Origin: Schmidtea polychroa
Taxonomy: Eukaryota
Direction: 5' to 3'
DNA: 64,000 bases
Assembly: GCA_044892525.1 (NCBI GenBank)
Contig: CM097885.1
Coordinates: forward strand, 24,492,001 to 24,556,000
Numbering within the stretch: position 1 is the first letter of the stretch; every line of letters starts with the position of its first letter. A program made the position numbers and the translations under genes. The notes below the pieces were generated by a model, which saw only the letters and a list, made by a program, of their open reading frames with translations, ran no database searches and was not told the origin of the DNA. Of this stretch, positions 3,821 to 64,000 are shown piece after piece.

Positions 3821-4033
3821 ATGTTTTCAAATATTTATAAAATCTTTGTCAGGAAAGACTATTACAATTAAGGTTGAGTCAAGTGACACCATTAAAAATG
3901 TAAAAGATAAGATTCAGGAAAAAGAAGAGTCAATTTTGCTTGTAAAGCATTAAAAGACGGCTTTACTTTATCAGACTATAGTATTAAGAGAAAATCTACG
4001 CTACGTCTGGTCTTGGGTCTTACAGCGGGAGGT
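3821..4033 (+). pseudogene. Ubiquitin-like domain (frameshifted) at the N-terminus of BEL/Pao gag
   Basis: [34 protein letters not shown], then after a frameshift [28 protein letters not shown]; colinear with ubiquitin. Confidence 0.85.
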
Positions 4034-5662
4034 CTGGTATCAGATGCGGAGTTCGAGGCCGGTTACAGAAAACGAACAGGGTTGAAGATTGCATTTACGG
4101 AACAGGGCTTTAGCAGATAGGGTGGACATTACGGAAGAACAAAGGAGAAGTATGAAAATCTCATGACAGAATTCGAGCAGCTGAAGAATAATGTCCTGAA
4201 GTTAGGACGAGAGAAGGTAGTGAAAGAAATTGAAGCAGATCTGAAACGATTAGAAGCGGATTTTAGCAGAATTGGTTTATCTATTCTTCACGTAGAAGAA
4301 AGAAAGTTTTAAAGTGGAATCACTGAAGGTCACAGAAAAATCATTTAGGAGTAAAGACCCTAATGAAAAACCGAAGTTAATAGTGGGATTGAAGCCCTTA
4401 TAACTTCCGATATATAATGGAGGAGTAAATGAATACTTGGCGTGGCGATCAATAGTACAAGCCTGCATTGAAGATACGGACGAGCCTAGCCAAATAAAGT
4501 ACTTATATCTAAGGCAATATTTGAAAGGAGAGGCTCTAAGACTAATATTGAAGCGTTTGAAGCCGCAGTGAAGCGGTTAGACCAGCGATATGGCGGTGCC
4601 GAAAGAAATTATTCAATGATGATGGAGTTCGTGCAGCGCTTTTATCCTATCAGAAACAATGAGTTGAAGGATCTCGATAGGTTTTCCGAATTGCTTCAAA
4701 ACTTAATATTGAGATTGAAAGTCTTGAATAAAAAGCAGAAGTTAAAAGATGGCATGATGTATCAATGCTTTTTAAAAAATTGCGAGAGATAATGATTGTT
4801 CAGTGGGAACGTAACATTGAGACAGGCAGGGAAAGGACGGTTGAAAGCTCGGCACAGTGGATCGAAAGTGAAGCAGAAAACACCGTAGAGCAATCAGTGT
4901 CTTGTTTGGAGAAAGACCAACAAAAAGTAGAAACATAAAACCAACAACAAACTTCGGAAATGCGAATAGGTACACTAACTTTGCGGACAGTGGGCGAAAG
5001 ATAGAAGTTAGTAGTGTGCGTAAAAAAGGGAACCAACCTGTATTAAATGTGAAGGAAGCCATTACTTAAACCAATTTTCAGAGTTCCTAAATCTGAATTT
5101 CAAGGAACGACATGAGTTTATGGCCAAGAAGCAACAGCTCACATGGTTCGAGAATGTGAAAAACCGTGTTTTTGTAAGGACAGGGACTGTACTTGAAAGC
5201 ATCATAATTTTCTCCATGACTCAGAGGACAAAATTGATGAAAATCAAGAGCCGAACAATGAAAACACGTCAATGATGACTCCTCAAGATAGACAGAGTCA
5301 GAAGATGTATTTTATTTTACAAACTATTTCTACAAAGTTAATTCATAAAGGGAGAGGGATCAGAATCAATGCATTACTGGACGGATTGCTGAACTGACTT
5401 CTAGACCCAAAACTCTAAGTTGTGACTGAAATGCGTAGGTACATAACATGCAAAAAGCAAAAAGTATAGTTAAATATAAAAAATACACCAATTAAACAAT
5501 ATTAATTAAAAGAGAAAACAGCAAAAATATAAACACAGAAATTAAATAAAATTATACAAAAGCAAGAAGTTATGCAAAATCGAACTCAAAAATAACCAAA
5601 TAAACATAGAGTTACAAAAAACAGACTCGAATAACTTAAAAGACGGGGAAAACAGTAAAAAA

Positions 5663-6071
5663 TTCCAGAAAAACCCAGAACATTCCATAAAATGGCGATG
5701 ACCATCATAAAAGCCATCTAGAGCAATAAAAGTTAGAAAAATAAATAAATTAGTAATAAAAATAAAAAATCTTAAAAAGAAATTCAGAAAACATCAGTTA
5801 AAATAAAAATTAAATTAAAAGTAATATGGAATGTTCTGGAACCGTTCCAAATCCATCATGGACGTAAAAATAACAAGAAATAATTAAAAAATAAAAATTT
5901 AAAAATAAAAACAAAAATTATGGCACAAAAATTGCCATTAAAAATATCAAAATCGCAAAATAGAAAATTCTGGAATAAAAAGAATTCGAGTTTGTTTTAA
6001 TGCATCAATACATACACGTGTACTTGCACACACAAAAATAGGTATATATACCGACGCATTTTAGTCACAAT
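5663..6071 (+). promoter_or_regulatory. Putative promoter of copy A: heat-shock elements, E-box, TATA box
   Basis: GAAtgTTCtgGAA (5829-5841), GAAaaTTCtgGAA (5963-5975), CACGTG (6015-6020), TATATATA (6043-6050); all conserved in copy B. Confidence 0.6.
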
Positions 6072-7849
6072 TAATCTCTTTATGCCAAATTTTTAATTCT
6101 TCTCAACTTCGGAATAATAGTAAGATTTTTCTTGTATTTGTTATATGTATTGTATTTGTTATATAATTTAAGTTTGATAATCATGCCTATTCTATTTAAT
6201 TTATTCCAATATTAGTTGAATGTAAGAGTGTTCAGAGACACATAGATTCATCTGCGTCTCTGCTCAGTCGTGCATTCAACTACATCTTTTAACTATTGGC
6301 ATTTCACATGCAGACACGCATTATCTATATTATAGTTTATTCTTTTTGTTCGGTCATCGTAGGTCGTCCACTTCAATGGTTCTGCCTTGGAGTTGTGTCG
6401 ATAAAATCCCTCCGCTATGGCTTTAATTATTTATCATCGGTCGACCACGGTAGGTTTCGACCTGACATAACATTAAGGTTTGTCGTAGTGGTCACAGTGG
6501 GGCCATGAAAGCAAACACTCTTCCCGACTTCAAAGCATGACATAATTAAAATCAACATTAAAAATCTCTACAACACAAACATCCTAAGGTTAATAAACAG
6601 AGTAGAACTCAGACCTAAATTAATCACAACTCAACACTCATACCTAATGTGGACGGTTGAATTCATCAAAATTCGGCCTATGCGTTGTCGAACATAGATT
6701 TGGAGATGTCCCAAATAAAAGTTCTAGTAAAATAATGATTTCCTTCAATGATTGATTTAGTAATACGGGCCTTCATGAAAGTGTTAGACATGCGTATCGG
6801 CAGGGTTTGGATGTTAAATTGAATCAACTTCAAACGAACGATAAAAATACTAACCGTAGTAGTATAAAACTCCATAGAACCATGAATTGTATTTATAGTT
6901 TTAGTTACTTTTGAAGAGAAATTCGGATTAATTATAAATGTATAAATCATAAATTTAACTTCTGGAAATTATAAATTACTAATTTATATTAACGTTAAAA
7001 ACTATAAACTATAACCTATGTCAATTATAAAATATAAATCATGAATAGTGCTATATAAATAGTAAATGTATCCAATCCTTAAATACTTGTATATAAATTT
7101 ATAAATTGTAAATAGTCATGTATAAATTATAAATGTATCGGGGTTATAAAATATAAGTTATAAATAATTATATAAAAATTTTTTTGATTATAAAATATAA
7201 AGTATAGATGGTTGCACCTAACTTATGCATGAATCTTGATGCTCGGAAATAGAACCCATAATTAGCTATAGATAAATTCTGTCTACGAAAATAGTAATTC
7301 TAAATAATTATATAAAATTTTTGATTACAAAATATAAAGTATAAATGATTGATTACAAAATATAAAGTATAAATGATTGAATATAAATTATACATATATC
7401 TTGATTTTATAAAAATAAACTATATATAAATTTTGATCATAAAATATAAAGTTAAATGGTTATATATAGAGGTTGAGTATAAAATATAAATAGTTATATA
7501 TATATAACTTGTAAATATAGAACTAAATCATAACTGGCTATATATCAATTTTGATCGAAAACTATGAAGTATAAACAGCTATATATAAATTGAGTATAGA
7601 TCTTAATTAGTAAAATGTGAATTAGAGATAACCATTTGTAAAGTATAGAAACATAATTCATGAACCATACCTAAAGTATAAACTAGAATTCATATTAACT
7701 ACCCAGGTTCCGAACGTAACCTGCAAAATTTGTAAAGTCTAATATCAGTCACCTCCAGAGATATGATCCTATGCCAAGGATATGAAATATAAATTTTTGT
7801 TAAATTATAAATTCTAAATGCATACAAATTAAACAAAGAAATATAATTC

Positions 7850-7994
7850 GTATTAGTATTATCATTATTGTTATTATTATTATTGTCAGTATTATCACTA
7901 TTATTACCCTTATTATTATTATTGTTAGTGTTATTATTATTATTATTATTATCATTATTATTATTATTATAATTATTACTATTATTATTCTTCA

Positions 7995-8051
<57 letters not shown>

Positions 8052-8060
8052 TATTTATTA
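7850..8060. repeat. Degenerate (TTA)n microsatellite inside copy A
   Basis: Visible TTA tract at the same relative position as the tract in copy B. Confidence 0.9.
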
Positions 8061-9748
8061 GTAACTTCCAAAAATCCAAATTTGATTGAATAATCGATTT
8101 AGGATTTCCCCTCACAACTAAATTTAGAACCTACCCTTTTGCCCCAATAAGAATGATCATAATTCCTAAAGTCTATTTTTAGTAACACCCCCCCCCCTCG
8201 GAGAAAATGCTAGGACTATTAATTAAATAAGAACATGGGTGGATACATCTATATAGATATGTGTGTAAACGTAGGTAACTATACGTATATAATAAGTTAA
8301 TTTAACCCAAGCTTATCAGTGACGGATACATCTTAGTTAACTTAGCGGCCCCAGAAATTAAAAGCCATGTAAAACCTACATTGTTGACTTAAACTAATTC
8401 ATCGAGAACACTAGGAATGCATTGAGACAGCCGATACCAACTATTGAACTCCACGGAATCAACTGCATGAATTATCGATAAATGACAAAAGTACATCTTA
8501 CTTAAAATTAAAAGCGTTATCAAAAGGGAATACTAAATTAAATTATTCAGCAAAATTTCTAACATAATTAGATACAAATCAAACTAAAGATACCAACACA
8601 GAGTCATATAAAATTCCTTAAAGGCTTTGAACAATCGACCATTCCGTCCGAGTGAAAGATTTCCACCAAATATATCTAAAATCGAAAAGTTATTATTGAT
8701 AAATAAAGTACTTACAAGTTAATCAAAGGGGATTACACCACTCATGACGAGCACAACCGAGGGATAAGTAAGTAAAATGAGAAGCTAGGCTCGTCAATGA
8801 TACTTATCGCCCCAGTGTACCCGAATTTAGTGGTAAAATATCGGAATACAAAAGAAAAAAAAATTATATATACATATATAGGCAGAAAATTAACTGATTG
8901 CATTTTAAATTACCATCTAGTGGTAAACAAAATTCGGAAAATTCAAGTGGTTAAGTTAAACAAAATGAATTTTCAATAAATTTTTGAGATACTATCAGAT
9001 AAGGTATAGGATTCATTACATTGATATTTAGGGTTAACTAAAGTTTTTATTAAAAGGATAAAATGAAAAAATTTAAATTCGAAATTCTAAGTTATAGTTA
9101 TTCCACTAGTCGTATTACCCCATTTAATTCGGCAACCAAATTACAAATCTAAGAGGTAGATAATTTAGAATAAAAAGTTGGAATGAAGAACTCCGTGACT
9201 GAGGCCCTTGTCCATACGTTTTATCATCGTGTCATTCGATAACTTTCATAAACATCATGTCAAAATCAAAACTTGGACAATACCATGGCACTACCAATGT
9301 TTCCGTCCGCCCGTCGATGTTTTCGTCGGTTGTTCTAGCATTCGTAGCGTCAAACGATGGCAGTGTGCGTTAGTAGGTCGGGAGGAGCGTTAACAAAAAG
9401 CCTGTGTTTAAAGACTCATCTCAGTCTGTTGGTGGGTTACAGGTACTGAAAAATCTTTACCCCCTCATGCTGTTTCCAGCGTAACCCAGAATACAATTTA
9501 TAGCCGACCACTTGATACCCGTTGAGCAATCAACGTTGGTACTGTATCAAGGGTTTCGGCACTAGCAAAAAGTGAGCATGCCTAGCATACTATAATTGTC
9601 TAGTACCCACTAGGGTTCACGGACTGCCGATAGAAGGCCTATGTCCGTTTTTCTTTAGTCCCCATTCCGAAAATCAACATTATGGCAAATTCGAAATGCC
9701 CAGATATGAATACACCCGTAATATTTATTCACAACACAAAATCAAAAC

Positions 9749-10211
9749 TCATAGAGTTATAGTCGGTTCTTTCGGTGCAGACTCTGACGCAGTAGCCTTG
9801 AGCGTCACTTGGGCCTGACAGGCTTGGCGGATTCTCGCCCGCGCCGCTTTACCCGGCCGGATCTTCTTCTTCGAGATCTTCGACGCTGCGCATTCCTTTC
9901 GTTGGTGGAGCAGCTCATTCATAGGGCGGATCCTGGAGATGACCTCTCGATCAAGGTTTTGTTGGTGCGACTGGACCTCCAGCTCTCTCACTCTCAGGCG
10001 GAGGGCCCGCAACTCAACTTGATCTTGGGCGCTCTGGAGTTGCAATTGAGTGATGAGTTTCATTCGCTTCTTCATCTCTGTGGGCGGGAACCAGGTGCTC
10101 TCGAAATTTCGGCAATGGGCCTTAAGTCGCATTAACTTGGCCCGATATTCTTCTACCTGTTGTTGCGCCCTCTCTCTGTCTGCTCTCATTTCTTCCAGGA
10201 GTTTTAACACT
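9749..10211 (-). CDS. Element ORF2, copy B: coiled-coil protein with basic C-terminus, function unknown (probably a spliced exon)
   Basis: Open frame homologous to ORF2 of copies A and C (WFxPxEMKKR, QLQxQxxQDQxExRAL); begins just after TTATTTCAG, with no shared ATG. Confidence 0.75.
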
Positions 10212-10662
10212 GAAATAAGTAAAAATTAGTATCCTTTCGCACTTTCGTCAAGTATCCACGTTATATCGCTAACACCATTGTGGCATAAGCTATAATCTCC
10301 CCGTCGCAGCCCGCATCAGTGCGCACCTAAACCCCAAATCCAGTCCTATGAGTTTCACTAAGATGTTATGAGGTTGGTAATAATAGTCAACATTTAGAGG
10401 AATATCAGTATATACGTATACAATAAGGGAATCCAAACAATTAGCTTAATATTAATAAACAAAACATAAAAGAACAACACTTTGCACATAGGTTAAAAGA
10501 AAATCAAATACAGAATTGCATGACAACCCCACTTTACACTGCGATGATAACGAAGTCGAGACATGCTAATCATTATAGTGAGTAAGATCATTATTATCAA
10601 TGGTATCGGAAAGCGAGTCCACTCGAAGTCGTATCACAAGGTGCGGATATTTGGCCCGGCGA

Positions 10663-11127
10663 TTATCTTGGTTGAATTGGGCGGGTTTTCCGCGGACGCC
10701 CGCGTTTTCTCGCCGGTTCCGCTCCCCGTCGAGAAGTTCTTAGGTACCCCAGCCCCCGGCGAAGAGCTGCGGTCCGCTTTGGGTGGCACTGGGCTCGGGC
10801 GTAGCCGTCGATGTCTTCCAACTCGCCGGCCAGGACTGATGTTTCGAGCCGGTCCAGTCGGTCTACCGCCTCCTTCACATTGTCGAAGGCGTCGCTCAGA
10901 GCCAGTGACGTATAGTTAATATACGGTTCGATCTTCGGGGTCACTGGAACCACATTCTGGTAGGTCCAATCGTGGATTTTGTACCATATCCACCGGGACC
11001 TTAGGCGAGCAACCTCTGCATCCTCCCGTAATCGTACGGCTTCGTCTGTTTCCTCGCGAGCTGGTCCGCGGCTTGAATCGGAGGATGAGGGTCCGACCTG
11101 TGCTTTCCATACCATGGTGTTGGACAT
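10663..11127 (-). CDS. Element ORF1, copy B: orphan protein with C-terminal AT-hook
   Basis: RLRSRWIWYKIHDW motif and RKRGRPRK shared with copies A and C; ATG at 11127 follows the acceptor-like TTTTATCATTGCAG. Confidence 0.78.
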   Translation of the reverse strand: MSNTMVWKAQVGPSSSDSSRGPAREETDEAVRLREDAEVARLRSRWIWYKIHDWTYQNVVPVTPKIEPYINYTSLALSDAFDNVKEAVDRLDRLETSVLAGELEDIDGYARAQCHPKRTAALRRGLGYLRTSRRGAEPARKRGRPRKTRPIQPR

Positions 11128-12676
11128 ATCTGCAATGATAAAAGAGGCATTTAGAACGACTCCTGGCTCTTCCAACTACGGGGTTATTTCAATCCGTCTG
11201 AATATGCCTTCAAAGTTACATTCTAATCTGATGTGCATTTCGCCCAATCGACCATATTCTTTGTATGCGGTTTAGTTTAAATTATGAGCTACTTTTCGTA
11301 ATCGCTTTTATACCCCCTTCTACTAGCTTTAGTCGACTCTACCACCTTGCTTTAGGTTCGCGTACTAGAAATCCGAGTTTTATCATCCTAGTTTTCACTG
11401 GGTCGATAGTCCAAATGGATGACTTAACCTTAACGAAATTTTTACGAAATAACTGTAAAGTCACTCTCGTCAATTTAATAGTCAATACCATAAAAGGGTA
11501 ATTTATGAATTAAATCCAAAAATTAAGTATTAATAAAATAAATCAAACGTCGCTACTACAGATTGAATAATTAATATAAAAAAAATTTGATTTATATTTT
11601 ATAAATTCAATATTAAACTATCTGTTGTTTAAGTTAATTAAACAAAAATATTTTATTTGTTAATTTGATGAGTTAACTTTCACAAGGAAATCCGTTATTT
11701 ATGGAGTTATTAGAATTTGGCTGCTCTAACCCACTATGGGAAGTGGATGTCGCGAAGGGTATGAATTTGTATTCAGCTCTTTGTGAATCCCTGACCATAG
11801 TGGTTGTAAGCGGCTCTTTCCTCAGCTGGTGCTCGATAGTAAGTAGAAGTTTTTATCTGTCGTAGTTGTATAATTTCAGGAATGGGTCTCTAATCCCTCG
11901 GTGTTTTGTATTTCAATCATCCACCGTATTGGAGCTATTACTGTTTAATGGAATCTAAAGCATGGCTATACTCCCAATTCGTGGCCATTTAGGGAAAGAT
12001 TTTTGGAATTTCATGGTTGTTTCATGATTTTATTGATCTATGCTACATGAATTTAAAGTGAAAATTGGGACTCGAGTTTTTCTGAGTTGTCCCCTTCTAG
12101 ACACTCCTTAATATTACCAGTAAGATTCCTTTTGTGATTAGAATAGTTTTGTAAACAAAAATTTTTTGATTTTATTAAATACATTTTCGCTTTTGTTGAT
12201 TCCTATTTAAGTAATTTTGTTTGACGTAAATTAATACTTATCGAGTAATTTTGTCAACTTCTCATGAGAACCTATATAGTTAGAATCACGACTGGTTATT
12301 ATTCCTTACTTTTGGTCCTATTGAGTGGGTATTCCTATTCAGAACTCACTTTCGGGGACCAGGCTCCGTGGCTTACACGCGATCTACTTCTGGGGTAACA
12401 AGGGTTAAATTCGCATGGGTGAGATAATTTTCATCGAAAGATTAGAGTTTCGACTGACATGGTCGATGGCGATTGGCTCGTGTAGGGGAGAGTAGGTGCC
12501 ACCTATCCGGTCAGTTAGGAGTAGTTCGTAGGGGGTAACCCTTGGTTTGCGGGGTTGTTACTAATAATAGAAGCGGTATTATTGGTCTAACTTTGTTATG
12601 AGGGGAAAAAAATCGATACTGTCGGTTTCGAATTTTCCTATTAATAGTAACGTGCTATTGATAATCATGTTACTAA

Positions 12677-12732
<56 letters not shown>

Positions 12733-12748
12733 TTAAGGGTAATAATAA

Positions 12749-12780
<32 letters not shown>

Positions 12781-12965
12781 AATTAATAGTATTAGTAATG
12801 ATAATAATAATGGTAATGATAATAATAATGATAATAACAATAATAATTTTTAATAATAATGATTATAATAATAGAAATAGTAATAATAGTGATACATTAC
12901 CAATAATAATAATGATAATACTAATAATAATAATAATAATAACGATAATCATAATCGTAACATTA
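12677..12965. repeat. Degenerate (TAA)n microsatellite inside copy B
   Basis: Visible TAA tract; source of the poly-I ORFs. Confidence 0.9.
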
Positions 12966-13389
12966 AAGATAATCCAATAGCAATGCTAATAATGGCAATA
13001 ACGATAAGGTTAATCCTGATAAGAAGTGTAAGTTTTATGCAGTGGGTAATAAATGTATAATTCAGGGGGGGGGGGGTGTTCATGAAATTATTAGTTTACC
13101 ATTTTACCGACTAAGTATATATTGAATAGGTTACTTTCAGATATCAGTACAATAGATAATGAAGGTAGGATTCAGGGGGGGGGGGACGTTTATGAATATT
13201 TATAAATTAGTAGTTCCATATTATATAAGCTAAATATATATAAAAATAAGTGAATCTAGGACAATTAGGTAAATATATAACATAGAGGCTAATTACGTAG
13301 ATTTATCATTTTGACATTTTGTAAGTTAATTATATATCAGAATAAATTAGGATTTTTAGGTACTGGACGGTAAGTATATAATTCAGAGG

Positions 13390-13850
13390 ATCGTCTTATG
13401 AGAATTCATAAACTATCATTTTTACATTTTATAAGTAAATATAGATATCAACATAAGGTAGGATATTTATGCATGAAATTTTACAAGCTATCATTTTAAT
13501 ATTTTATAAGATAAATATATACCTCAGAATAAGTTAGGATACTTATGAATGAAAATTTACTATCATTTTAATATTTTATAGGATAAATATATACATCAGG
13601 ATGAGTAGTGCATTTATGAATAAAAATCTACAAACTATCATTTTAATATTTTATAGGATGAAGATACACATCATAATAAGTTAGGGTATTTATGAATGAA
13701 AATTTACAAATTATCATTTTAATATTTTATAGGATAAATATGCGTCAGAATAAGTTAGGATATTTATGAATGAAAATTTACCAACTATCATTTTAATATT
13801 TCATAAGATAAATATCTATACCAGAACCAGTTAGGATATTTATGAATCGG
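13390..13850. repeat. Tandem minisatellite, about 74-bp unit, about 6 copies
   Basis: Recurring TATTTATGAATGAAAATTTAC...CTATCATTTTAATATTTTATAG near 13465, 13540, 13613, 13688, 13761; a related array lies in copy A at about 7140-7560. Confidence 0.8.
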
Positions 13851-14867
13851 ACAATAAATATATAATTCAAAGAACCATTTATGAAACCAGGTAAGTTGTA
13901 CATATTCCAGTTGGGTTATAACCATGAACTGGTGATTCGACGACTTTACGACATTGGTAAGAAAGGTTGCCTTTTAAATTTAATCTGCTGATTTATGCAA
14001 TTTCGTACTGATGATAATGACACACTCTCTATGGAGATAACGAGAAAAGGGTGGTGAGGATAATGATAATAATTCTGGGGGTGATATTACTATTAAGGCA
14101 AAATGGAATTCCAATACCCATAAGGTAAGGATAAAGACTTGTAATTAATATATCATTGAACGTGATTAGATTATCTTTAAAATCGAACATAATTATGAAT
14201 AATATCAATAAAATCTAATAACAATAGTTAATATTTAGCATATTGAATGATAGTTTGTGCAATTAGCCGACTACTTGATAACTTTTGTGATAAATTGAGT
14301 CTGGGATCTTTCCCGTTTAGCTGTTTCTAATGATGTATTTCCTATAGAATATTTGAGTGTGTACTTTAGATGTGTCGTTTACCGGAAGGTCGAATTAATT
14401 AAAATTTTCCTACTTTCCCGATTCAACTGAATACGGTACGATAGGCCTTATTGTAATATGTTTCCCGCGATTACTTGCCCGCATTTTATTTCGTCCGCAT
14501 AGTCCCTGCGACTATGCCAACTACCTGGATGGATTTACCGCCCTACTCCTGGTTAGAAACCATTTGTTCGTGGCGACCTTCCGGTTAAAAAATTGAAATT
14601 TAGTGCATGTGGGGTCGTAGACCCGTATCGTGCATGTGAATTAGTTATTGGAAACAAGGCTGATCAGCGTCGTGGATGTAATCCGCTCACGACGACGCTG
14701 GTCACTCTTGTTGTGAATAATCGGATCATAATAAAAAGGTGACAAAAATTAGAATCATTATAATATATCATAAAAATGAATAATAGTTATACAATAAATA
14801 TACCATCCTTACTTTCAATATGGTTCGAAAATTCGGCAGAAAAATTTTTTGGCATACAAAAATATCT

Positions 14868-15275
14868 GAATTGTGACGAAAATGCGTCGGTATATATACC
14901 TATTTTGTACACGTGTATGTATTGACGCATTAAAACAAACTCGAATTCTTTTTATTCCAGAACTTTCTATTTTGTAATTTTGATATTTTTAATGGCGATT
15001 TTTGCGTCATAATTTTTATTTTTATTTTTAAAATTTTATTTCCTAAATATTTTTTGCTAATTTTTCCTCCATGATGGATTTGGAACGGTTCCAGAAAATT
15101 CCATATTACTTTTAATTCAAGTTTTATTTTTAACTGATATTTTACGAATTTCTTTTTTAAGAAATTTTATTTTTAATACTAATTTATTTATTTTTCTAAA
15201 TTTTATTGTTTAAGGTAGCTTTTATGATGGTCATCGCCATTTTTATGGAATGTTCTGGGTTTTTCTGGAATTTTT
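14868..15275 (-). promoter_or_regulatory. Putative promoter of copy B: heat-shock elements, E-box, TATA box
   Basis: TTCcaGAAaaTTC (15089-15101), TTCcaGAActTTC (14955-14967), CACGTG (14910-14915), TATATATA (14891-14898). Confidence 0.6.
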
Positions 15276-15586
15276 TGCTATTTTTACCATCTTTTAAGTT
15301 ATTCGAGTTTGTTTTTTGTAACTCTGTGTTTATTTGGCTATTTTGAGTTAGATTTTGCATAACTTCTTGTTTTTGTATAATTTTATTTAATTTCTGTGTT
15401 TTAGGTTTTTGTTGTTTTTTCCTTTAATTACTATGGGTTATTTGGTGTAGTTTTAATATTTAACTATACTTTTTGCTTTTTTGCATGCTGTGTACCTACA
15501 CATTTCGGTCACAATTAGAAATTTGGGTCTAGAAGTCAGTTCTAGCCCAACACTGTGTAAAGTGTCCTGATTTTTGTATTATAGAA

Positions 15587-15952
15587 ATGTCTCATTCTGA
15601 CGATTACAGCGATGGTGAAGCCTGCAGGTAAATGATAACGCGGCTCCGGACCCGGTACATCTGGTACCGGATTCATGATTGGAACCGGGGGCTGGACTTG
15701 GATAATTACGGCCCGGTTATCCGGAGTGGCCCAGAGCCCGACGCACTGGCGTGGATGAAGACGGAGCCCACTAACGACTTGCTACGAGAGGCCCGCGATC
15801 GAGCGGCTATCGCAGTGGAAGCTGCCCAAATGCGGCTGAAGAAAATCGAGCTCCAGCTCAGGGCGTAAAAGGAAGGAGTGCCGCTAGAAGAGCTGGAGGA
15901 TGCAGAAGCGCCCCCACGGAAGCGAGGGAGGCCCCGTAAGAGCGCAGCATAA
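15587..15952 (+). pseudogene. Element ORF1, copy A (premature stops)
   Basis: Protein nearly identical to copy C ORF1, with in-frame TAA near 15629 and at 15866; ends RKRGRPRKSAA. Confidence 0.8.
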
Positions 15953-16215
15953 CCCACCAACAATTTCTCTTTATTTATGACTCGAATTGAAATATTTGAC
16001 TTGTTTTAATTGGTGATATTTTTTTTGTTATGTTTGTAGTTCGTGCAATAAATTATTTCTTTGTCAAATTATTGGCTTTATAGATTATGGTGTATTCTGG
16101 TGATTTAAGCGACCCCTTTTTCGACACCCAACTAATAATTTTATGATGAGAATAAGCAAATCACCTTTATGTGCATGGAAGTCAGTCATAGAATTTTATT
16201 ATTGTCTTCATTCAG

Positions 16216-16714
16216 TGTTCAAATTACTCGAAAATTTACGCAAGGACCGCGAGCAGGCCCAACAACAAGCCGAAGACCTCCGAGGCCGAGTCGAGAAACT
16301 CAAAATGAAGTGCCGAGAACTCGAGGGCACTTGGTTCAGTCCGACCGAGTCAAGAAACTCAAAATGAAGTGCCGAGAACTCGAGGGCACTTGGTTCAGTC
16401 CGGCCGAGATGAAGAAACGAACGGCACACATCTTGCAACTCCAGACCCAGGTGGAGCAGGATCAACTGGAAATACGGGCACTGAAGTTACAAGTGCGCAC
16501 GCTCGAGGTCAAGCTGAACGAAAGGTTCATTCAGGACACTCTCCGAGAGCAGATTCGCCCATTACCCGTGGAGCTGGCCAAGATATACCCACCGGCCCAG
16601 GCAAGCAAGCCGAAACGCAAACGGCTAGGGCGGAATACCCGAGAAAAGTTGAAAAGGGCCTGGCTGGCCGAACAGGAAAAGCTAAGAGAGTCCGAGGCCG
16701 CCCCACGATCCTGA
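16216..16714 (+). pseudogene. Element ORF2, copy A (frameshifted by a 59-bp tandem duplication)
   Basis: AGAAACTCAAAATGAAGTGCC...GGTTCAGTCCG occurs at 16294 and 16353; otherwise matches copy C ORF2. Confidence 0.8.
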
Positions 16715-17133
16715 AGGGTGATTGAGAGTGCGACCCCTCCTGGGTAAAACGGATACCGTAACATTGTGATGTCTAAATAAATAATTTTCACCATCTGATG
16801 TGTATGTGGTTGAATCTTATGATTGTTGAGAACAAGGCGGTTGACATAAGAGTGTTTGGGAAAGCAATCTCGATAAGGGACCGAAGTAAATCGGACACAT
16901 GCCTTCTAACGGCGTCCGTGAACCCATAGAGTGCTCGACAATTATAGTGCTCTTAACGCGCTCACTTTTTGCGAGTACTCAACCCCTTGGTACAGTACCA
17001 ACGTTGATTACTCAACGGGTACCAGGCGGAAAATAACGTTGTATTCTGGGTTACGCTGGTAACAGCACTAGATAAGAATTATTCGACCACCTGTAACCCA
17101 CCACAAGCTTTGTGATATCCATTGCAAATCCCA

Positions 17134-17175
17134 ATAGTAGACTAGTTTCAAGCATTTGGCTCTCATCAGTACTAT
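17134..17175 (-). ncRNA. Minimal type I hammerhead ribozyme
   Basis: Minus strand reads ATAGTA CTGATGA GAGC-CAAAT-GCTT GAAA CTA GTC TACTAT: 6-bp stem I, intact CUGAUGA and GAAA core, 4-bp stem II, palindromic ACTAGT stem III, GUC cleavage triplet. Confidence 0.85.
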
Positions 17176-18099
17176 GCAAAAGACGCGAAGATTTCTCTTC
17201 ACACCAGGTATACAATATAGCTGATTCAACTCTATTGCATATTTTACCTGATACACTGGAAATCACATCACTTGCAAATTCGCTAAATCACAGAAAAAAT
17301 ATTTATTCCAGTGAACCCGTATATTTCCTGGGCAAATTTGAATAATTCATTCCCTTAATCCTAGTATCGAAAAATAGATGGAACACCTATAGTAAATTGA
17401 GTTAGTGTCTTCTATTAACACCTTGAATCATAAGAATCCGCAACTTGTTTTCAAATTTCACATAGTATCAACATTAATTGTGAATGGTGTGGTTTAGTTG
17501 TATTGCATTTTCATTGAATGTTCTAACTGTTAAATTTCGAGCCATGTGAATAATTACGAGATTGAACTACGTTAGTAGGCAAGGCGTCAAATATAGGTCA
17601 ACAACTACAACCCCACAATTCTCTTTTGTCCTTCCCTTAATTAATTAACTCCATGGTTTTGCCCTCCCTAATATATTACCATCTTGTTTTAATGGCGTTT
17701 TATATCAATTGTATATTTTCGATTTTTATGTGTGAACTGAAATGGTTGTTATTTTCAAAACTAGTATCTATGCATGTAAACTTAAATAAATTTATATGTT
17801 AATAGGTCAGGTACTTATTGAACGCGCATCGAGTGTACGATTTGTAAATAAATTTAATTTAAAATTAAATCTAATTTATGAAAATTTATCATTTAGTTTT
17901 GTATTTCAAAATTTTTAATGTTATTTTGAGTTTCATTATTTTTCAAATGAAAATTTTTTCACATTATTATATTTCTTAAACATTTATTATTTTGTTATAA
18001 TATAGATTTAAAATAGCGGTATTTTAATTTCATGTAATTTCGATCTTATATTTTTCGTGTTCCATTTGTATTAAAATCATTTAGATTTTATTTAAAAAT

Positions 18100-35462
<17,363 letters not shown>

Positions 35463-36573: not shown

Positions 36574-37367
36574 CTATAAGAATTTGGCGTGTTCATCGAA
36601 TGGATATTGAGTACTTGGTGCTACATTCCATAATTCGGGTGACAAGTATTCATAGGTTTTCCTAATGGCCATGTATGTTGCTTTAGCTAAAAATAGTAAT
36701 AATTAATTACCTTATTTAAATAATATAAATTATTACCAAAATTTTCTAAAGTTGCAGTTTGCCCATTAGCACTAGTATAAACATCTTGAATACCAGCCAT
36801 ACTTAACAGTTTCTTTGTAACTGGAGCTCCGACAATTCCTGTACCTCTTGGGGCTGGAATAAGTCTGACACTTACAGATCCACATTTTCCAGTAACCTTT
36901 GATGGCACGGTGTGAGTGTCACCAATTTTGTTACCCCAATATCCTTTTCTTACGGGAATAACTGAAAGTTTGGCTTGGATAATTGCTCCTCTAATTGCAG
37001 TTGCAACTTCTTTAGCACATTTAACTCCAAGTCCAACGTGACCGTTATTATCTCCAAGAGCAACAACAGCCTTAAATCGAGTTCTCTGGCCAGCACGAGT
37101 TTGTTTTTGAACTGGTTTAATTGAGAGAACTTCGTCTTTTAAATCAGGTAAAAAGTGATCGATGATTTCAGCTTCTTTAATTGGTAAACTGTAAATGTAG
37201 GTGTCTTCCAAACTCTTAACCTTTCCAGCTTTAACCAATTGACCCAATTTAGTGCAAGGTTCCCATTCCTTTGAATCTTTTTCTCCTCGTCCTCGTCCAC
37301 GTCCTCGACCTCGTCCACGTCCCCTTCGACCTCTGCCAAAACTTGTTCTTGCTGGTACTGTTGACAT
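36574..37367 (-). CDS. RPS2: 40S ribosomal protein S2 (uS5), two coding exons 37367-36737 and 36686-36574
   Basis: RG-rich N-terminus, [28 protein letters not shown]; a 50-bp GT-AG intron restores NFAKATY...FDEHAKFL*. Confidence 0.97.
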
Positions 37368-39336: not shown

Positions 39337-41554
39337 TCTAACAATAAGAAAAATAAAATTATAAATATTTTGTATATATTTTGTAAAGAAAGAAGTCAAA
39401 AGTTAACTTAATTATTATATATTTTTTACATTTAAGAATATTTAACTATCAATCAATCTATTACTTTTAAGTTTTTAACCAGTTGACTAAAGAATATTGT
39501 AATGCATGAGTTAATGTACATTACTTAGCATATGAAGTAGCACACAAAATATAATAATAAGTGTACCAGTATAAGATAATTGACAACTTTTCGTCCTACA
39601 CCTAATTCCGAAAGTTAAAAGTTTTATTATAGGAATTGAGAAAGTGACAGAAAAATAATTTTACATACAAACACAGCACACATAATATAAAATACACGCA
39701 AAATTAATATAGCTTTTTTATTCCGAAAGTTAAAAGTAATTAACATATTGTTAACATATAATTATTTTTAAAATTCATGGCGGAAAAAATTTGGATTTTC
39801 AATCGGACAACTCTACTTTGAACTTTTGATAAAGGACGACAAAACATCGTAAAATCTATTTAAAAAATATTTTTGAAATATTATTTCTTTAGATTTTTAG
39901 ATATTTCTCTGGAAACGCTAGCTTTTTGCGAAGGTCAAGAATTGACAATGTATGAATTTTTTCATTTAATTACAAATAATTAAAATATTTTAAAGTATAT
40001 CAGATATTTCTTGTCAAACGACTTTATGTGAAGATAGCATTTCTAATATTCAACAAGGTCCATCAACATTTGCAGAAAAAAATTTGAAAATCGTAAATTT
40101 TAATAACTTGTATAAAAGAATAATAATTTCATAGAATTACATAAAATGACAAAATTCGCCATATAAATGAGCTGGAGAAAGAAGATTACAAAAACTTAAA
40201 AAACTACTCCGCTTCTTATTATATGTCTTAAAAAAATAAATGTGTTTGATGATTTCTTTATTTATTTATAGTTAAAAATATTAATCTAACTTACATTTTA
40301 TCGAAATTATTCCAAATAAATTGATAGTCATAAAAATCCTAAAAAAACTTGAAAATTAATTAAAAATAATTTATTATCAAAATGTTGACTACAAGTAACA
40401 TTTAAGAGCTTGAATAGTGATCTCATAATTTTATAAAATCAAAATTCTTAAACTTAAATAAAAAAACTTTCTTGTAAAATTGAATAAATAAAATGAAGTA
40501 AATAACTTCACATTGTCATAAGTGGTGAGTCATCGACTGATGATCACACCAACATGTATTATAGAGACTTTTAACTTGTGGAATTAAGTGTAATAGCTCG
40601 CAAAATCAAAATCTACAGAGTTTTGTCTCTCATACATTAAAGTGCATGTTGCAATGGCTTGTAACCTATACAAGCTCTGGGAAATAGCTATAATGTTATT
40701 TATTGCATAGAAATCGCTTTACTGATTTTTCCGAGATTATTCTTTGTACACTTATTTTTTGTTTTTTAAATTTGAATTTTGTTTTTCAATTTTTGCTATT
40801 AAGTATTAAAAAGGCGAGGGCCGCCTGCTCTGCCTGTGCGTAACGCCGAGCATGGTAGACACATTTAGAATATTTGGCATGGAGCTTAAAGAAGTCAATA
40901 ATATTGATGCGGCATTGGTTACTAAGAGATTTACAGATCTGATCGGTTAGAGTTTGTGTTATCGATGCTCGAGTTGGACAGGAATTCGAAGTTGGGTACT
41001 TTAATATATTTAAGTATAATATATAAGTATGAATGTTATACTTCGTGAATTTTGTCGAATTTATTTTCTTATATTATTTTGCCAATCTTCTTTTGACGTT
41101 TGAAGGGGATAACGGATGGCCAGATAGATGTTATGGAATTAATTTATTTATATTATAGTTGGGATTCGTTTTTGAATGAAAGTTGGAATTAGAATTTGTA
41201 ATTCAGTTTTCTATTTTTTTATTGAGTTGTTTTTGTCGATATTTGAATTGTTACATTATATGTTTAGTTATAGTATATATTTTAATCGAAAATGAACATT
41301 GTATTGTTAGAATATACGTTTAGTTATAAATACATATTTACTTGAATTAAAAATGAATATAAATTGTTACAGTCATCTCAAGTTGAAATTTTATATGAAT
41401 CACTAAACTTACTTAGTGGCCCATTTGGCCGACGATTAAACTAAATCTAACAACCCAGCATAGGTGGGAATAAGGTGGGAGCTCACGAGGAGTTCCAACA
41501 GCTTACCCGACACCGGCTGAGCTGATTTATTCAGCAGTACATCATATTTTCAAA

Positions 41555-42047
41555 AGTAGTGGGCATAATGGGAATCGTTGGCAACACCACCCACCCAATT
41601 CACTCATTAAAAAAAACAAGTTTTTTTACTCGCTCACCCTTCGGGTGGTTGGGATGGTGTGACCAACGATTCCCATTATGCCCACTTACAAATCTGATAT
41701 TTTAATATTTTAATAATTTTAAAATAAAAATAATTTTAATAATTTTAAAATAAAAATAATTTCAATAATTCAAGGATTTAATAATTTCACATTTCTATAT
41801 TTTAATAATTTCACATTTCTATATTTTAATAATTTCACATGTCTATATTTTAATAATTTTATCATTTTAATATTTTTTAAATATTGATGGGTACTTGAGA
41901 AATAATATTTTAAACAATTATGGGTACTAGTGAATTTACTAGTACCCAAGATTCTCACTAGTACCCAAGGTTAGAGTTCGAATCAAGGTTTGAGATCAAA
42001 TCAAGGTTTGAGTTCGAATCAAGGTTTGAGTTCATACCCAAGATTAT
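41555..42047 (+). repeat. Left TIR of the Polinton
   Basis: Reverse complement of 52689-53094, with extra copies of 24-bp and 18-bp tandem units. Confidence 0.92.
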
Positions 42048-44026
42048 AAACTTGACAAATTTTTTATTATAAAAAATCCAGTAAAAAAAAATTGAAATAA
42101 AAAAATGCCTACTTCAAAAAACTTGGATACCCAAGATTCTCACTCAAACCAAGATTATTTTTGTGATTCATGTAATAGGAGTTTCAAAGCAAAAACAGCA
42201 TTAATGTCACATGAAAGATCAAAAGGTCATTTAAAGAAATTAAATTTATTAGATGATAGCAACTCTAAAATTTGTACCAAGTGTAAAGAAAGATATTTAT
42301 TTTCAGGGTTTGATAAGCATTTTAGAAATTGTATTGTAATAAAAAAAATAAGAGAATCATTTTCATGTCTCAAATGCATAAAGTCTTCAAAAGTAAATTT
42401 GAATTAAAGGAACATGCTAAAGAATGTGAAGATGATGATGATGATGATGAGGAGGTTGAAGGTTGGGATGAATTTAATCATGTTGATGAAGAAATTGGAG
42501 CATCTATAATTTCTTCATATATTAAAAAAAATTTAAGAGAAATAAAAGAATCAATGGAAAGATCTATAGCAAGGTTCAAAGGTACAAGGTTTAATATTAT
42601 AAAATATAAAATAGGAATAAACGCAAAATATTGTCGACAAACTAATCAAGCTTCTCACTCAAACCCAAATTTTCTAAAGTTTATGATTCAAATTGATTAT
42701 AAATATTTATATTCAATGAAGGGATTTAAAAAAAACAATCAAAGAAATTATTCCAGCGTTGCAAGAACAATCTGAACATGAATTAGGAGAATCAGATTTA
42801 TGTTTCCATTCCTTTGAAAATATTCAAATAGACTATTGGAAAGGAAACCCCCAGTTCCCAAATCCTTTATTCCAACACCTTTTATTTTTAAACATGTAAT
42901 AAATGTCAAAAATGGTGATAACAAATGTTTCCTATGGACAATACTATCAGCTTTACATCCTCAAGAACAACATTCTTATCGAGTATCTAAATATCGACAA
43001 TATGAACATGAAATTTTATTCTGGGATGGTTTTGAGCACCCAATGAAAATTGAACACATGTCAAAATTTGAAATATTGAATCAACTTAGAATTAATATTT
43101 ATGAATTAGATGGTGACAGGGTTATACCAATTTATATTTCAGATCAAGATGAAAATTCTTCAACTGTAACTTTTAATACAATAAGTTTATTAATATTAGA
43201 AAATATTGATGGTGATGATTTACTTTCTCATTATGTTTGGATAAAAAATTTTCAAAGCTTTATGAGATCTCGATCATCATTCTGTCATCGAGTACGAGGA
43301 CACACTTGTGAAAGATGTCTTTATTATTCAACTTCTGATGCTGTCAGAATAAAATATGAAAGATTATGTCGATATAATGAACCGGCATTAATTAAAATGC
43401 CAGAGAATCTTGAAATGAAATTTAATAATTATTCGATTTTATTAGAATCTCTTGATACAATTTATGGGGATTTTGAAACAATTAATAAACCACAAAATTT
43501 AGAACAAGAATATCTAAATATCATAGAAAACAATAAATTATTAGATTCTTGGTATGAGTATAGATTGAATCAACTGAATCAATTGAATCAATCGAACCAA
43601 ATGAATCAATTGGAAAAAATGAAAGATTTTCTCGAACTAAACAAAAAATCTTTTACAATAAAATTAACTAAACAAGTTCCATCAGCATATCGTTTATTCA
43701 TTGTGAAAGTAATTAAATTGAAGTATTTAATTTCCAGATTTAAATAGATTTAAATAATATAATTAAAGTAAATAATAAAATTATAAATTAAAATAATAAA
43801 TTAAATATATTTAAGGATGATTGAAGATTAAAATATAAAATATTTATTGAATGCTTGTGTACGAATATTCCCTATTCAAATATTAACTCATGCTTGCGAA
43901 AATATCCTCTAAGCTAAAAACAGTGATTGTTTTAATAATAGAGATTTTTGTGTTGTTTTTAAAAATAAAGTTTTGTTTTGTTTTTAAAATATGGATGTGA
44001 TTAATTTAAGAAACCAAACTTCTAAT

Positions 44027-45043
44027 ATGGCGACCACGATGGCCAATTTCATCAAAGCACCAGAAAATTTCAAGATGGGAACCGATGTTGAAGATTTCAT
44101 CAAGGAAACCGAAAGATTTTTCGAATTAATGTCGATAGCTGAGGACTTCAAAGGTAGATTTGTCAAAGCTTTTTTATCAACAGATGCAATTAAGAAATAT
44201 GATTCAACTGATGAGAAACAAAGTTATATGGATAGACTGAGAGAAGTCTTCAAAAAACCAATGGATCTGATGGAAGACTTAAGTGAAGCACTAGATTATA
44301 GACAAGGAGATGATTCCGCTGATGATTTCTGCGAAAAAATTGAGAAATTATCAAAAGGAATTCTGAAACATGAGTTAAATGAAGAAGAACTTCAAAGATT
44401 TCTCATATTCAATGCAGTGGAAGACCAAGATTTGATAAAAGATTTGAGATTAAATGAATATAAATCTGTGAATGAAATGAAAAAGAGAATTAAAAAACAC
44501 GAGAAAGTAATTAAAGAATTAAATCGAAATAGTGACTCGATGGCAGTTGTGGGAACTGAAACGAGATATGCGGATATGGTAAAAAAAGCTATAAATATTC
44601 CAGCAAGACCAATATTACGCAGATATAACGATATGCCTAGAAGAAATACGTTCAGCGAGCCAAGACAGAATCGAGAATATCAGAACAAACAATCGAATTT
44701 TAATAATCAAGAATTCCAAACAAACAATAGGCCAAAGTTCAGATGCTGGGCATGTCATGAAGAAGGCCATAGAAGAGCAGAATGTCCGAATGTTAAATGT
44801 TATCATTGTCACAGAGCAGGTCATTTCAAACACCAGTCCTTTCAATTAAGAAAGAATTTTAGAGATGTAAGAGAAAATGAAGAAGAAAACATACGGGGAA
44901 AATTCCAAGGAAATCGCAGAAATTTCAGAAACCGACAATATCAGAAACCAGTTGCGGCAATGGAAGAAGAAGAAGAGCATGAAAATCAATACCCAAATGG
45001 ATATGCTCCACCACGAGAGGAGGTGATCGGAGCACTGCAGTAA
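44027..45043 (+). CDS. Gypsy Gag
   Basis: Open frame with CWACHEEGHRRAEC and a second, degenerate CCHC knuckle. Confidence 0.85.
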   Translation: MATTMANFIKAPENFKMGTDVEDFIKETERFFELMSIAEDFKGRFVKAFLSTDAIKKYDSTDEKQSYMDRLREVFKKPMDLMEDLSEALDYRQGDDSADDFCEKIEKLSKGILKHELNEEELQRFLIFNAVEDQDLIKDLRLNEYKSVNEMKKRIKKHEKVIKELNRNSDSMAVVGTETRYADMVKKAINIPARPILRRYNDMPRRNTFSEPRQNREYQNKQSNFNNQEFQTNNRPKFRCWACHEEGHRRAECPNVKCYHCHRAGHFKHQSFQLRKNFRDVRENEEENIRGKFQGNRRNFRNRQYQKPVAAMEEEEEHENQYPNGYAPPREEVIGALQ

Positions 45044-45785
45044 GTATGAGTTATATGTTGAATGGGGAATTGTATGATGATTGTTTGCATGCATTTAATA
45101 ATGAGAAATATGAATATATAAGTAATGATGATAATTGTAAATGCGTCTCCGATGCAGATATTTATAGTGATTGGTGTAATAATGGATTGAGGTTAGATGA
45201 TTTTGGAAATGTTGTAGAGCATGTTTGTAATATTAATGATATAAGTTATAATAGTAATATAATTAAATATAATAAATTAAATGGTAGACCAAGTGTCACA
45301 TTATTGATCAATGAGAACGAAGTATGCTGTTTATTAGATACAGGAGCAAAGATCAGTGTGATGGATGAAAGTGTATTAGAAAATATAGGAAAGTTTAATT
45401 TAGAAAAATGTTATGTTAAATTGAGATGTGCAAATAAGTCACCGATATCTATAGTAGGAAAGGTAAATATTACAGTTCAAATAGTGAGAACGAAAGAGGC
45501 GAGAATAATTGAATTTATTGTGGCCAAAGAGATTTCACCAAAGGTAATTGGAGGTATAGACTTCTTGAGAAAATTCGACATAATGTTAAAGATGAAGGAT
45601 AGTTTATTAAATGATGATGTAACTATTGCTGGAATAAAAAACTTAAAAGAATTGAGTGAATCTAATCAATGTAAAGATGGTAATGTTAGAGAGCTATTCA
45701 GAAAATTTGAGTCAATTTTTATGAAACACAAATGGGATGTGGGTAAGACAAATTTAATAACGCATGAAATTTTAACACCAGGAAG
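44992..45785 (+). pseudogene. Gypsy Pol N-terminus (aspartic protease), truncated before RT
   Basis: CLLDTGAKISV and IGGIDFL motifs in the -1 frame relative to gag; runs directly into the 3' LTR remnant. Confidence 0.85.
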
Positions 45786-48904: not shown

Positions 48905-48919
48905 TTTTAAATAAATAAA

Positions 48920-61849: not shown

Positions 61850-62232
61850 TGGTGGGTTACTGGTGGTTGAATGTTTAAGTGCTGTTACCAGCGTAACCCA
61901 GAATACAACATTGTTTTCCTCTTGGTACCCGTTGAGCAATCAACGTTGGTACTGTACCAAGGGGTTGAGTGCTCGCAAAAAGTGAGCGCGTTAAGAGCAC
62001 TATAATTGTCGAGCACTCTATGGGTTCACGGACGCCGATAGAAGGCACGTGTCCGATTTATTTCGGTCCCTCATCGAGATTGTTTTCCCAAATGCCTTTC
62101 TGTCGTCCATCTTGTTCTAGACAATCGCAAAGTTTAATCACATACTCATTAGACAACAAGAATCATTTATTTAATCACTACTATATTACAAGGTCTGTTT
62201 TACTCAGGAGGGGTCGCACTCTCGAATATTCC

Positions 62233-62673
62233 TCAGGATCGTGGAATGGCTGCAGGCTCTTTCGATTTTTCTTGCTCGGCCAGCCAGGCCCTTTTCAATT
62301 TGTCTCTTGTATTCCGCCCCAGTCGTTTACGTTTCGGCTTGCTTGCCTGGGCAGGTGGATATATCTTGGCCAGCTTTACCGGAAGTGGGCGAATCTGCTC
62401 ACAGAGAGTGTCCTGGATGAACCTTTCGTTCAGTTTACTCTCGAGCGAGCGCACTTGTAGCTTCAGCGCTCGGATTTCGAGTTGATCTTGCTCCGCCTGG
62501 GTCTGGAGTTGTGAGATGTGTGTTGTCCGTTTCTTCATCTCAGCCGGACTGAACCAAGTACCTTTGAGTTCTTGGCACTTGACCTTGAGCTTCTCGACCC
62601 GACTTCGAAGGTCTTTGGCTTGTTGCTGGGCCTGTTCGCGGTCCTTTCGTAGATTTTCGAGGAATTTGTACAC
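62233..62673 (-). CDS. Element ORF2, copy C
   Basis: Open frame after the acceptor-like CTTCGTTTAG; homologous to copies A and B. Confidence 0.78.
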   Translation of the reverse strand: MYKFLENLRKDREQAQQQAKDLRSRVEKLKVKCQELKGTWFSPAEMKKRTTHISQLQTQAEQDQLEIRALKLQVRSLESKLNERFIQDTLCEQIRPLPVKLAKIYPPAQASKPKRKRLGRNTRDKLKRAWLAEQEKSKEPAAIPRS

Positions 62674-62997
62674 TAAACGAAGATAATAATGAAGTTCCAT
62701 AACTAGCCTTCATATGCGTAAAAGTGATTCGATTAATTGTATAGAATTAATAGATGAAGGATAGGGAGGGTCATCTCGTCCCTGGGGACACCCCATACGC
62801 AATAAGACCTATATGCAATGACTAAAAGATGATCTATTATACGACGAATATGCACGATGAACAATAATATAAAAGTTCTAATAATAAAAATTTCACAAAT
62901 TGTCATAATTGCTACAAAAACAGAAAAATCAAACGCAACACAGTATCACTAATTGTATCACTCAAATAATTTCGTCCGAATTGTCACTACTGATGAG

Positions 62998-63363
62998 TTA
63001 GACCGGGTTCTTGCGGGGCCTTCCTCGTTTTCGTGGAGGGGCATCTGCCTCCTCCAGCTCTTCGGGGGTTACTCCCTCTGCTTCGGCTCTGAGCTGGAGT
63101 TCGAGTCTCCTCAGCCGCATCTGGGCCACTTCTACTTCGACGGCCGCTCGATCGCGGGCTTCTCGCAACTCATTGTTGGTGGGCTCTGTTTTCACCCACG
63201 CCGGGGCATCGGGCTCTGGGCCACTTCGGATGACCGGACCGTAATTATCTAGGTCCAACCCCCGGTTCCAATCGTGGATCCGGTACCAGATGTACCGGGT
63301 TCGGAGTCGCGTGATCATTTGATTGTAGGCTTCATCACCGTTAGAGTCGTCAGAGTGAGACAT
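62998..63363 (-). CDS. Element ORF1, copy C (AT-hook)
   Basis: MSHSDD...RLRTRYIWYRIHDW...RKRGRPRKNPV; differences from copy A are mostly synonymous. Confidence 0.8.
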   Translation of the reverse strand: MSHSDDSNGDEAYNQMITRLRTRYIWYRIHDWNRGLDLDNYGPVIRSGPEPDAPAWVKTEPTNNELREARDRAAVEVEVAQMRLRRLELQLRAEAEGVTPEELEEADAPPRKRGRPRKNPV

Positions 63364-64000
63364 TCTATAATACACAGCCTGATATGAGTCTTTAAGGGAC
63401 TCGGACAACGGAGTTCATAATTAAAACCTTGCATTCAAAGTTAATCATTTTCGATAGTTGTAACTTGAAAAAAAAATTTAATGAAGTTGTATGACTAGAG
63501 AAACGACTGCAATTACAACCTGGATTTCCGCAATTAATTTTTAGTTAAAAAGAAATTCAAAAGTCCTGCGTAAATTTTTAGTAAATCTTACGCTTTAACT
63601 GAATATATCCTAAAATTGATAACTAAACATATCCTAAAATTGATTAGCAATTAACTTTGTTTAATTTAATCATTTAAATTTTCAGAATCTTATTTACCAC
63701 TAGATGGTAATTCAAAATTTTATACATTAATTTTTCCTACTAATTTATGAAATTAGACCATTTTGGTAATTCACCACTAAATTCGGGTGCACTGGGGCGA
63801 TAAGTATTAGTGACGAGCTTAGTTTCTCGTTTACTTACTGCTCCCTCGGTTGTGCTCGTCGTGAGTAGTATAATCTTCTCTGGCTAGCTTGGAAGTAATT
63901 TATTTATTAACAATAAATTTTCAATTTCAGGTACGTTTGGTGGGAATGGCCGATTTTAACTTTTGAGAGATTGTCATACGACTCCTTGCTGGTACTTTTG

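Follow-up and report, generated by a model that had tools for sequence, protein, structure and literature searches.

The repeated element described here, which is bounded by TG..CA ends, is tentatively read as the solo LTR of a large planarian retrotransposon, in which heat-shock elements (HSEs) and a TATA box would form an HSF-driven U3 promoter giving a spliced RNA for two ORFs. Judging from the arrangement of motifs, ends, and frames, we place this reading slightly short of an even chance. The fuller version, namely an LTR with an R region of ~5 kb, an intron, two alternatively spliced accessory genes, and an HSF promoter, so that each solo LTR would be a complete stress-inducible two-gene unit, is possible, if rather doubtful. 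The first-pass annotation had proposed a U3-like promoter serving the two genes of the element. The anatomy supports this, as the motifs lie within 0.7 kb of the start of a TG..CA element (copy B) that is flanked by a 4-bp duplication and whose donor is in frame with both ORF acceptors. No intact products can come from copy A, which is decayed and interrupted by B. The window, i.e., the whole 64-kb stretch of DNA that was analysed, is AT-rich eukaryotic DNA dense in mobile elements.

Element copies and the promoter block

Three copies of the element (A, B, and C, Table 1) are found in the window. Nine of the 12 terminal bases of B form an imperfect inverted repeat, and its target duplication is perfect (ACAG on both sides) and lies within the 4-6 bp characteristic of LTR elements. 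B is nested in A, a decayed relative: once B is removed, A runs colinear with C to the left and to the right of the insertion point (8659-9209, and 15575-17104 at 74% identity). For A itself no matching target duplication was found, its 5' junction being damaged. DIRS and other tyrosine-recombinase elements have inverted or split repeats and no target duplication; a DIRS-like reading of the inverted A/B pair was rejected, as the pair is a nested insertion and B has a 4-bp duplication. The 3' end is the same in A, B, and C, and the silent sites between B and C are saturated. On the stretch 13900-17300, two DNA-like public runs gave 24,396 and 6,779 contigs, whose summed depth, which is no measure of copy number, was about 10 times or more higher over the promoter and terminal blocks than over the ORFs. 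Several contig joints in other copies begin at 15552-15553. Clearly, the element belongs to an abundant family whose copies have their ends in common and differ in their interiors. At the 3' junction of C (61820-61849), in the Gypsy integrase region, a 15-bp tandem duplication of the target DNA was observed. Furthermore, a second copy of the terminal motif TAACCCACCA is located directly at the ORF1 stop of A (15950-15962) and is absent from C.

Table 1. Positions in the window of the element copies and of their promoter, coding, and terminal features
Feature	Position	Strand	Remark
Element copy A, 5' part	5387..9429	+	first few bases lost; abuts BEL/Pao-like gag-protease remnant
HSE 1 of A	5663..5685	+	five in-register units, middle one degenerate
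HSE 2 of A	5829..5841	+	perfect three-unit array
HSE 3 of A	5963..5975	+	perfect three-unit array
Initiator-like motif of A	5991..6002	+	match to putative planarian initiator, 13.5 of 14.6 bits; inside longest invariant A/B run
CACGTG E-box of A	6015..6020	.	
TATATATA (TATA) of A	6043..6050	+	
GTAAG donor-like site of A	6120..6124	+	preceding exon lost its frame
Target-site duplication, left	9426..9429	.	ACAG in element sense
Element copy B	9430..15552	-	complete, 6,123 bp, TGTTGGG..CCCACCA ends
Terminal block of B	9430..9662	-	conserved, hairpin-rich
AATAAA after ORF2 of B	9724..9729	-	sole one in the last 2.2 kb of B
ORF2 exon of B	9749..10209	-	intact, coiled-coil-like, basic tail; starts at phase-1 acceptor
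ORF1 of B	10663..11127	-	intact, AT-hook-like RGRPRK end; acceptor 2 nt before ATG
Predicted intron of B	11130..14812	-	3,683 bp, GTAAG..CAG; ~75-bp tandem array and (ATT)n tract
GTAAG donor of B	14812	-	
Predicted coding part of exon 1 of B	14813..14855	-	ATG at 14855, 14 codons, phase-1 end
TATATATA (TATA) of B	14891..14898	-	
CACGTG of B	14910..14915	.	
Initiator-like motif of B	14928..14939	-	
HSE 3 of B	14955..14967	-	perfect three-unit array
HSE 2 of B	15089..15101	-	perfect three-unit array
HSE 1 of B	15248..15270	-	
Target-site duplication, right	15553..15556	.	
Element copy A, 3' part	15557..17103	+	beyond nested B
ORF1 of A	15587..15952	+	broken by two stops
ORF2 exon of A	16216..16714	+	broken by internal duplication
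Terminal block of A	16877-17103	+	
Element copy C, 3' part	61850..64000	-	inserted in Gypsy integrase region; 5' end outside window
Terminal block of C	62070-61850	-	
ORF2 exon of C	62233..62672	-	open
ORF1 of C	62998..63363	-	open

The motif set of the first-pass annotation (two three-unit HSEs, CACGTG, TATATATA, and GTAAG) was recovered at homologous places in A and B, and its presence in both copies is confirmed. Each copy carries two perfect arrays and one gapped five-unit array, i.e., at least three inverted nGAAn units in 5-bp phase. Perfect GAAnnTTCnnGAA arrays occur five times in the whole window, for which 1.2 are expected, and four of them are inside copies A and B; the fifth (34557-34569) lies in sequence unlike the A/B/C element. 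When the promoter block was dinucleotide-shuffled 5000 times, two or more arrays were obtained in no trial for A and in 1 trial for B, and six two-unit sites are present where the shuffles give 0.33. The two-unit sites found at 5663 and 5678 share one register and make up one five-unit HSE with a bad middle unit, which matches 13 of 15 bases in both copies and has the top five-unit score of the window. All HSEs lie upstream of the putative core promoter, the distances to the first T of the TATA box in A being 380, 214, and 80 bp, and the donors are found 69 nt (A) and 78 nt (B) past the TATA end and align as homologues, in agreement with the donor-like site that had been placed downstream of the TATA box. 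Taken singly, neither TATATATA nor GTAAG is rare, with 15 and 67 occurrences in the window. The HSE region shows a faint offset self-similarity (59% over 425 nt), so a common origin of the HSE modules is possible, in which case the significance obtained with the shuffles would be inflated. A recent duplication of HSE modules is unsupported, the modules being 38% and 49% alike without gaps.

It had also been claimed that differences between the copies fall in spacer bases of the arrays. Both array differences are indeed spacer bases, and as an argument for conservation this is weak, with two changes and P ~0.04. Counted over the block, the differences between A and B number 0 among 30 HSE core bases, 2 among 16 spacer bases, and 62 among 640 other positions; compared with this background of 9.7%, the core yields P of about 0.04-0.05, a post hoc value since the motifs were chosen after both copies had been seen. 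Of the five longest stretches without a difference between A and B, four fall on HSE 1, HSE 2, HSE 3 together with the initiator-like motif, and the TATA box. Among the 40 of 633 variant rows listed for the public-run contigs, both HSE variants are spacer bases. At 15097, the base of B is near-private, as 99% of the contig depth in run X2 carries the base of A. A and B are 91% identical as far as the TATA region; in the 400 bp that follow, identity drops to 69% (57% when shuffled), and in the last 230 bp it is 81%. The promoter has either been exchanged recently between subfamilies or is strongly constrained.

A start of transcription 25-30 nt after the TATA box had been predicted. This is uncertain because a strong match to a putative planarian initiator motif, taken from Table S3 of PMC10558129 and missed in the first-pass annotation, lies 30-50 bp upstream of the TATA box, with 13.5 of 14.6 bits in both copies; only five sites in the window score as high. 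The start could be at this initiator-like site, ~20 nt past the TATA box, where a (T/C)AGTC-like motif is conserved, or ~31 nt past the TATA box.

Predicted transcript, coding exons, and 3' end

In the solo-LTR reading, the three HSEs would recruit HSF trimers to an A-tract-rich block, and transcription by Pol II would begin downstream of the proximal HSE and ahead of the ATG. A single donor would be spliced across 3.7 kb to either of two acceptors, delivering the AT-hook protein of ORF1 or the coiled-coil protein of ORF2, and the RNA would end after the AATAAA downstream of ORF2. The genomic RNA of a full-length parent would begin at this start as well, which would place the two genes in an R region of ~5 kb and leave the last ~270 bp as U5. 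The order of promoter and poly(A) signal within one repeat is that of an LTR at the sequence level.

The donor of B is in frame both with the ORF1 acceptor and with the ORF2 acceptor, and the ORF2 exon of B lacks its own ATG where the conserved part begins. Acceptors are present at matching places in A, B, and C, with the ORF1 acceptor of C one base off the frame of A and B. A tandem array of ~75 bp and an (ATT)n tract also occur in A, at positions similar to those in B. Between A and C, dN/dS is 0.13 for ORF1 (119 codons) and 0.12 for ORF2 (120 codons); both ORFs are under purifying selection. No homologue of ORF1 was found in protein searches, which covered proteins of near length only, and neither ORF matched a polyprotein in these searches. 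Pfam returned weak coiled-coil and AT-hook matches below the cut-off; the ORFs had no usable match in the ESM Atlas and no match among PDB sequences or viral contigs. A single metagenome match (L001) was discarded as an off-frame chance match in unrelated DNA. Among 1.84 billion representatives, the ORF2 profile identified two proteins, 80% (P0001/P0003, relative to B) and 27% (P0002) identical. In P0002 the ORF2 relative is joined to a calponin-homology region at the first residue of ORF2, as expected of a gene model using the ORF2 acceptor. This record is parvin-like with the ORF2 relative as its C-terminus, and represents either a gene-model error or a real exon capture.

Public-run contigs were also inspected for traces of transcription. 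No joint leading from the donor was seen among the 15 of 53 joints listed for the stretch 13900-17300, outside of which the acceptors of B lie. The sequence was located in eight public runs from three studies, none of them recorded as RNA. Two runs might be RNA: the depth profile of X7 mirrors that of the DNA-like runs, and X9 is deepest upstream of the TATA box and thin after it. Neither is counted as evidence, since contigs cannot show start, strand, or level. In X9, oligo-T loose ends occur at 15165 in seven contigs, just downstream of an AATAAA cluster on the A-rich promoter strand, and represent either internal priming or a poly(A) site of read-in transcripts.

An AATAAA also follows ORF2 in A (16776) and C (62171). 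The terminal block is, besides the promoter, the best-kept part of the element, with 80-94% identity between distant copies. Its 230 bp fold into shared hairpins with four double changes in 37 pairs, a count from three sequences only that was reached by 15 of 500 shuffles. At the very 3' end, a 7-bp stem followed by ACCA has the geometry of a tRNA acceptor end around a GNRA-like hairpin. The structure (9430-9490 on the minus strand, 17045-17103 on the plus strand, and 61850-61900 on the minus strand) has an invariant stem in all three copies and may be just the LTR end; a tRNA search found none. A very abundant, different repeat begins at the last base of A (17103, to 17300+), where run X2 has 93 loose-end contigs. 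Within this repeat, a hammerhead-like core lies at 17169 on the minus strand, with an unsupportive Rfam result and fold z-score. A Penelope-like reading was rejected, as such elements carry the hammerhead motif inside the element according to the cited part of PMC6431247, and here the core lies outside A, Rfam reports no hammerhead, and the fold z is 0.54.

Alternative readings of the element and its promoter

A promoter that is real and in practice not heat-inducible is unlikely, and among the alternatives it survives best; it would serve a developmental HSF or another factor reading TTCnnGAA, or piRNA silencing would override it. In line with this, planarian transposons are described as being under PIWI control with tissue-specific expression in the relevant part of PMC8532177. 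A-tracts and the initiator-like motif characterise promoters of the constitutive and stem-cell types in S. mediterranea (PMC10558129), yet in those it is T that abounds on the sense strand, whereas the block here is A-rich, with 53% A. The HSEs themselves argue the other way: three arrays are present with correct alternation, a 5-bp phase, and a distance of 68 bp between the nearest one and the TATA box. The results given in PMC12801592 for Macrostomum lignano bear on both sides, as four of the six HSE-bearing LTR families were heat-induced, including all three with at least two HSEs, whereas in two single-HSE families, which were not induced, the HSE was insufficient.

Quite unlikely is a solo LTR in which the HSE promoter is internal to a U3 of ~5.9 kb, driving the accessory genes or, should the LTR read in the opposite direction, acting as an antisense promoter, with the genomic RNA starting in the structured terminal 230 bp. 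Retroviral R regions are typically short, which this arrangement would respect, and the terminal block is both well kept and folded into hairpins. However, the sole conserved AATAAA lies upstream of the terminal block and would cut a genomic RNA short, and by eye the block has no TATA box at canonical spacing. Against the U3-promoter reading favoured above, an R of several kb that includes an intron departs from the LTRs of the papers cited here and would require that splicing and 5' polyadenylation be suppressed. No copy adjoining a PBS, a PPT, or gag-pol was found in the window or among the 24 loose ends listed (1686 more exist), and paired direct repeats around a gag-pol with PBS and PPT are absent within the window.

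Distinctly improbable is a self-contained non-autonomous element that is no LTR at all, mobilised by a Ginger-like integrase-type DDE transposase and carrying its own stress-inducible genes. TG..CA ends and 4-bp duplications also fit Ginger-like elements, as do conserved ends around a variable interior and the lack of a visible parent. Ginger-like transposons, however, have terminal inverted repeats of tens to hundreds of bp, and a self-comparison of B gave no inverted repeat beyond the imperfect 12 bp, the two conserved ends being unrelated to each other. In addition, where hairpins of the 3' block have changed, G-U pairs are retained on the gene strand in three of three cases, which is a weak argument against this reading.

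It is hardly credible that the motifs arose by chance in AT-rich repeat DNA and are common only by descent: A and B are 88-91% identical and thus not independent, and TATATATA and GTAAG are frequent motifs, but each copy alone beats its shuffles and the layout is ordered ahead of an in-frame exon. Helitrons have TC..CTRR ends and no target duplication, and a Helitron is contradicted by the TG..CA ends and the duplication found here.

Known systems, significance, and the surrounding DNA

The first-pass annotation had pointed to heat-activated LTRs such as ONSEN as precedent, and heat-induced, HSE-dependent LTRs are documented in Arabidopsis (PMC13602373) and Macrostomum (PMC12801592); the solo-LTR promoter would thus work like a known kind. 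What is known is the HSE-driven LTR, and what is unusual is the gene-bearing, multi-kb layout. As HSE capture by LTRs is established, the motif finding alone would count as a further independent example, from a second flatworm lineage. The Macrostomum families belong to Ty3/Mdg4 clades (Mlig-id115 to Mag, id36 and id55 to CsRN1, and id38 to Gmr1/Osvaldo) and, as here, have canonical three-unit HSEs upstream of a TATA box; the present promoter fits the regular expression given in PMC12801592 twice. In contrast to the present case, which is known from sequence, their induction (mean log2FC of 8) and HSE dependence were measured and their clade was assigned from the RT (PMC12801592). The element here is 6.1 kb long with an intron and two ORFs, whereas the Macrostomum LTRs are described without genes in the cited text (PMC12801592). 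ONSEN, a Ty1/copia element of Arabidopsis, likewise has HSF motifs in its LTR promoter; as it is a plant copia element, the likeness is convergent and no sequence relation is expected (PMC13602373, cited part). HSEs are also spread by Helitron1_CE of C. elegans, a rolling-circle element and in this unlike the present one with its TG..CA ends and target duplication (PMC12801592, cited part).

With regard to size, the giant planarian Gypsy elements Burro and GYPSM1 exceed 30 kb in total with up to 25 kb internal, which implies long LTRs, and carry accessory ORFs and tandem repeats (PMC6431247). They resemble the present element in these features and in the likely host group. Burro has a region for a Gag-Env-Pol polyprotein of ~5,000 aa; no such ORF lies beside A, B, or C, and the ORF2 profile matches only P0001 and P0002. 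Foamy viruses are vertebrate retroviruses with a short R. In their LTR, the major splice donor is located upstream of the poly(A) signal and U1 binding suppresses 5' polyadenylation, as stated in the cited part of PMC3694450, which offers, by analogy only, a precedent for the control that the layout of the element would need. The plant LTRs of Ogre are 1.9-6.5 kb long (PMC6431247), and Retrosat2 has an LTR of >3.2 kb and many solo LTRs (PMC3485330), which agrees with the length and the abundant solo LTRs assumed here. In the cited descriptions, their extra ORFs are internal, upstream of gag-pol, and not inside the LTR (PMC6431247, PMC3485330). In the literature searched, no description of the element was found; Grohme 2018 with its supplements and Repbase, which lay outside the search, may list it.

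If the promoter is a U3, the picture of a short R would be broken and solo LTRs would keep whole genes; furthermore, many dispersed HSE clusters could rewire the heat-shock response of the host or fire after wounding. If the two-gene reading holds, AT-hook and coiled-coil proteins would be made from every solo LTR in a regenerating flatworm. Being compact and native, the promoter is in addition a candidate for inducible expression in planarians.

The surrounding DNA contains several other mobile elements. At 3830-5390, a ubiquitin remnant, a BEL/Pao-like gag (DUF1759), and the beginning of a protease motif succeed one another and are cut by copy A. A Maverick/Polinton-like remnant (41541-53109) has inverted repeats of ~460 bp, an rve integrase, and a phospholipase A2-like ORF, and encloses a Gypsy gag-protease fragment (43988-45861). 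Two decayed Gypsy elements in opposite orientations occupy 53571-61985, with an RT at 53571-54245 on the minus strand and gag-pol at 57618-61985 on the plus strand. At 36687-37367 (minus strand), a ribosomal protein S2 (uS5) frame is intronless over 210 codons and is possibly a retrocopy. The only Rfam match was a sub-threshold one, a hairpin at 40399-40460 (minus strand) matching mir-753, a planarian family, with 40.9 bits against a family threshold of 62, which hints at a planarian source. Finally, a degenerate, extremely AT-rich tandem array (7-13% GC) is located at 19061-20779 and an imperfect palindrome of ~410 bp at 29919-30329.
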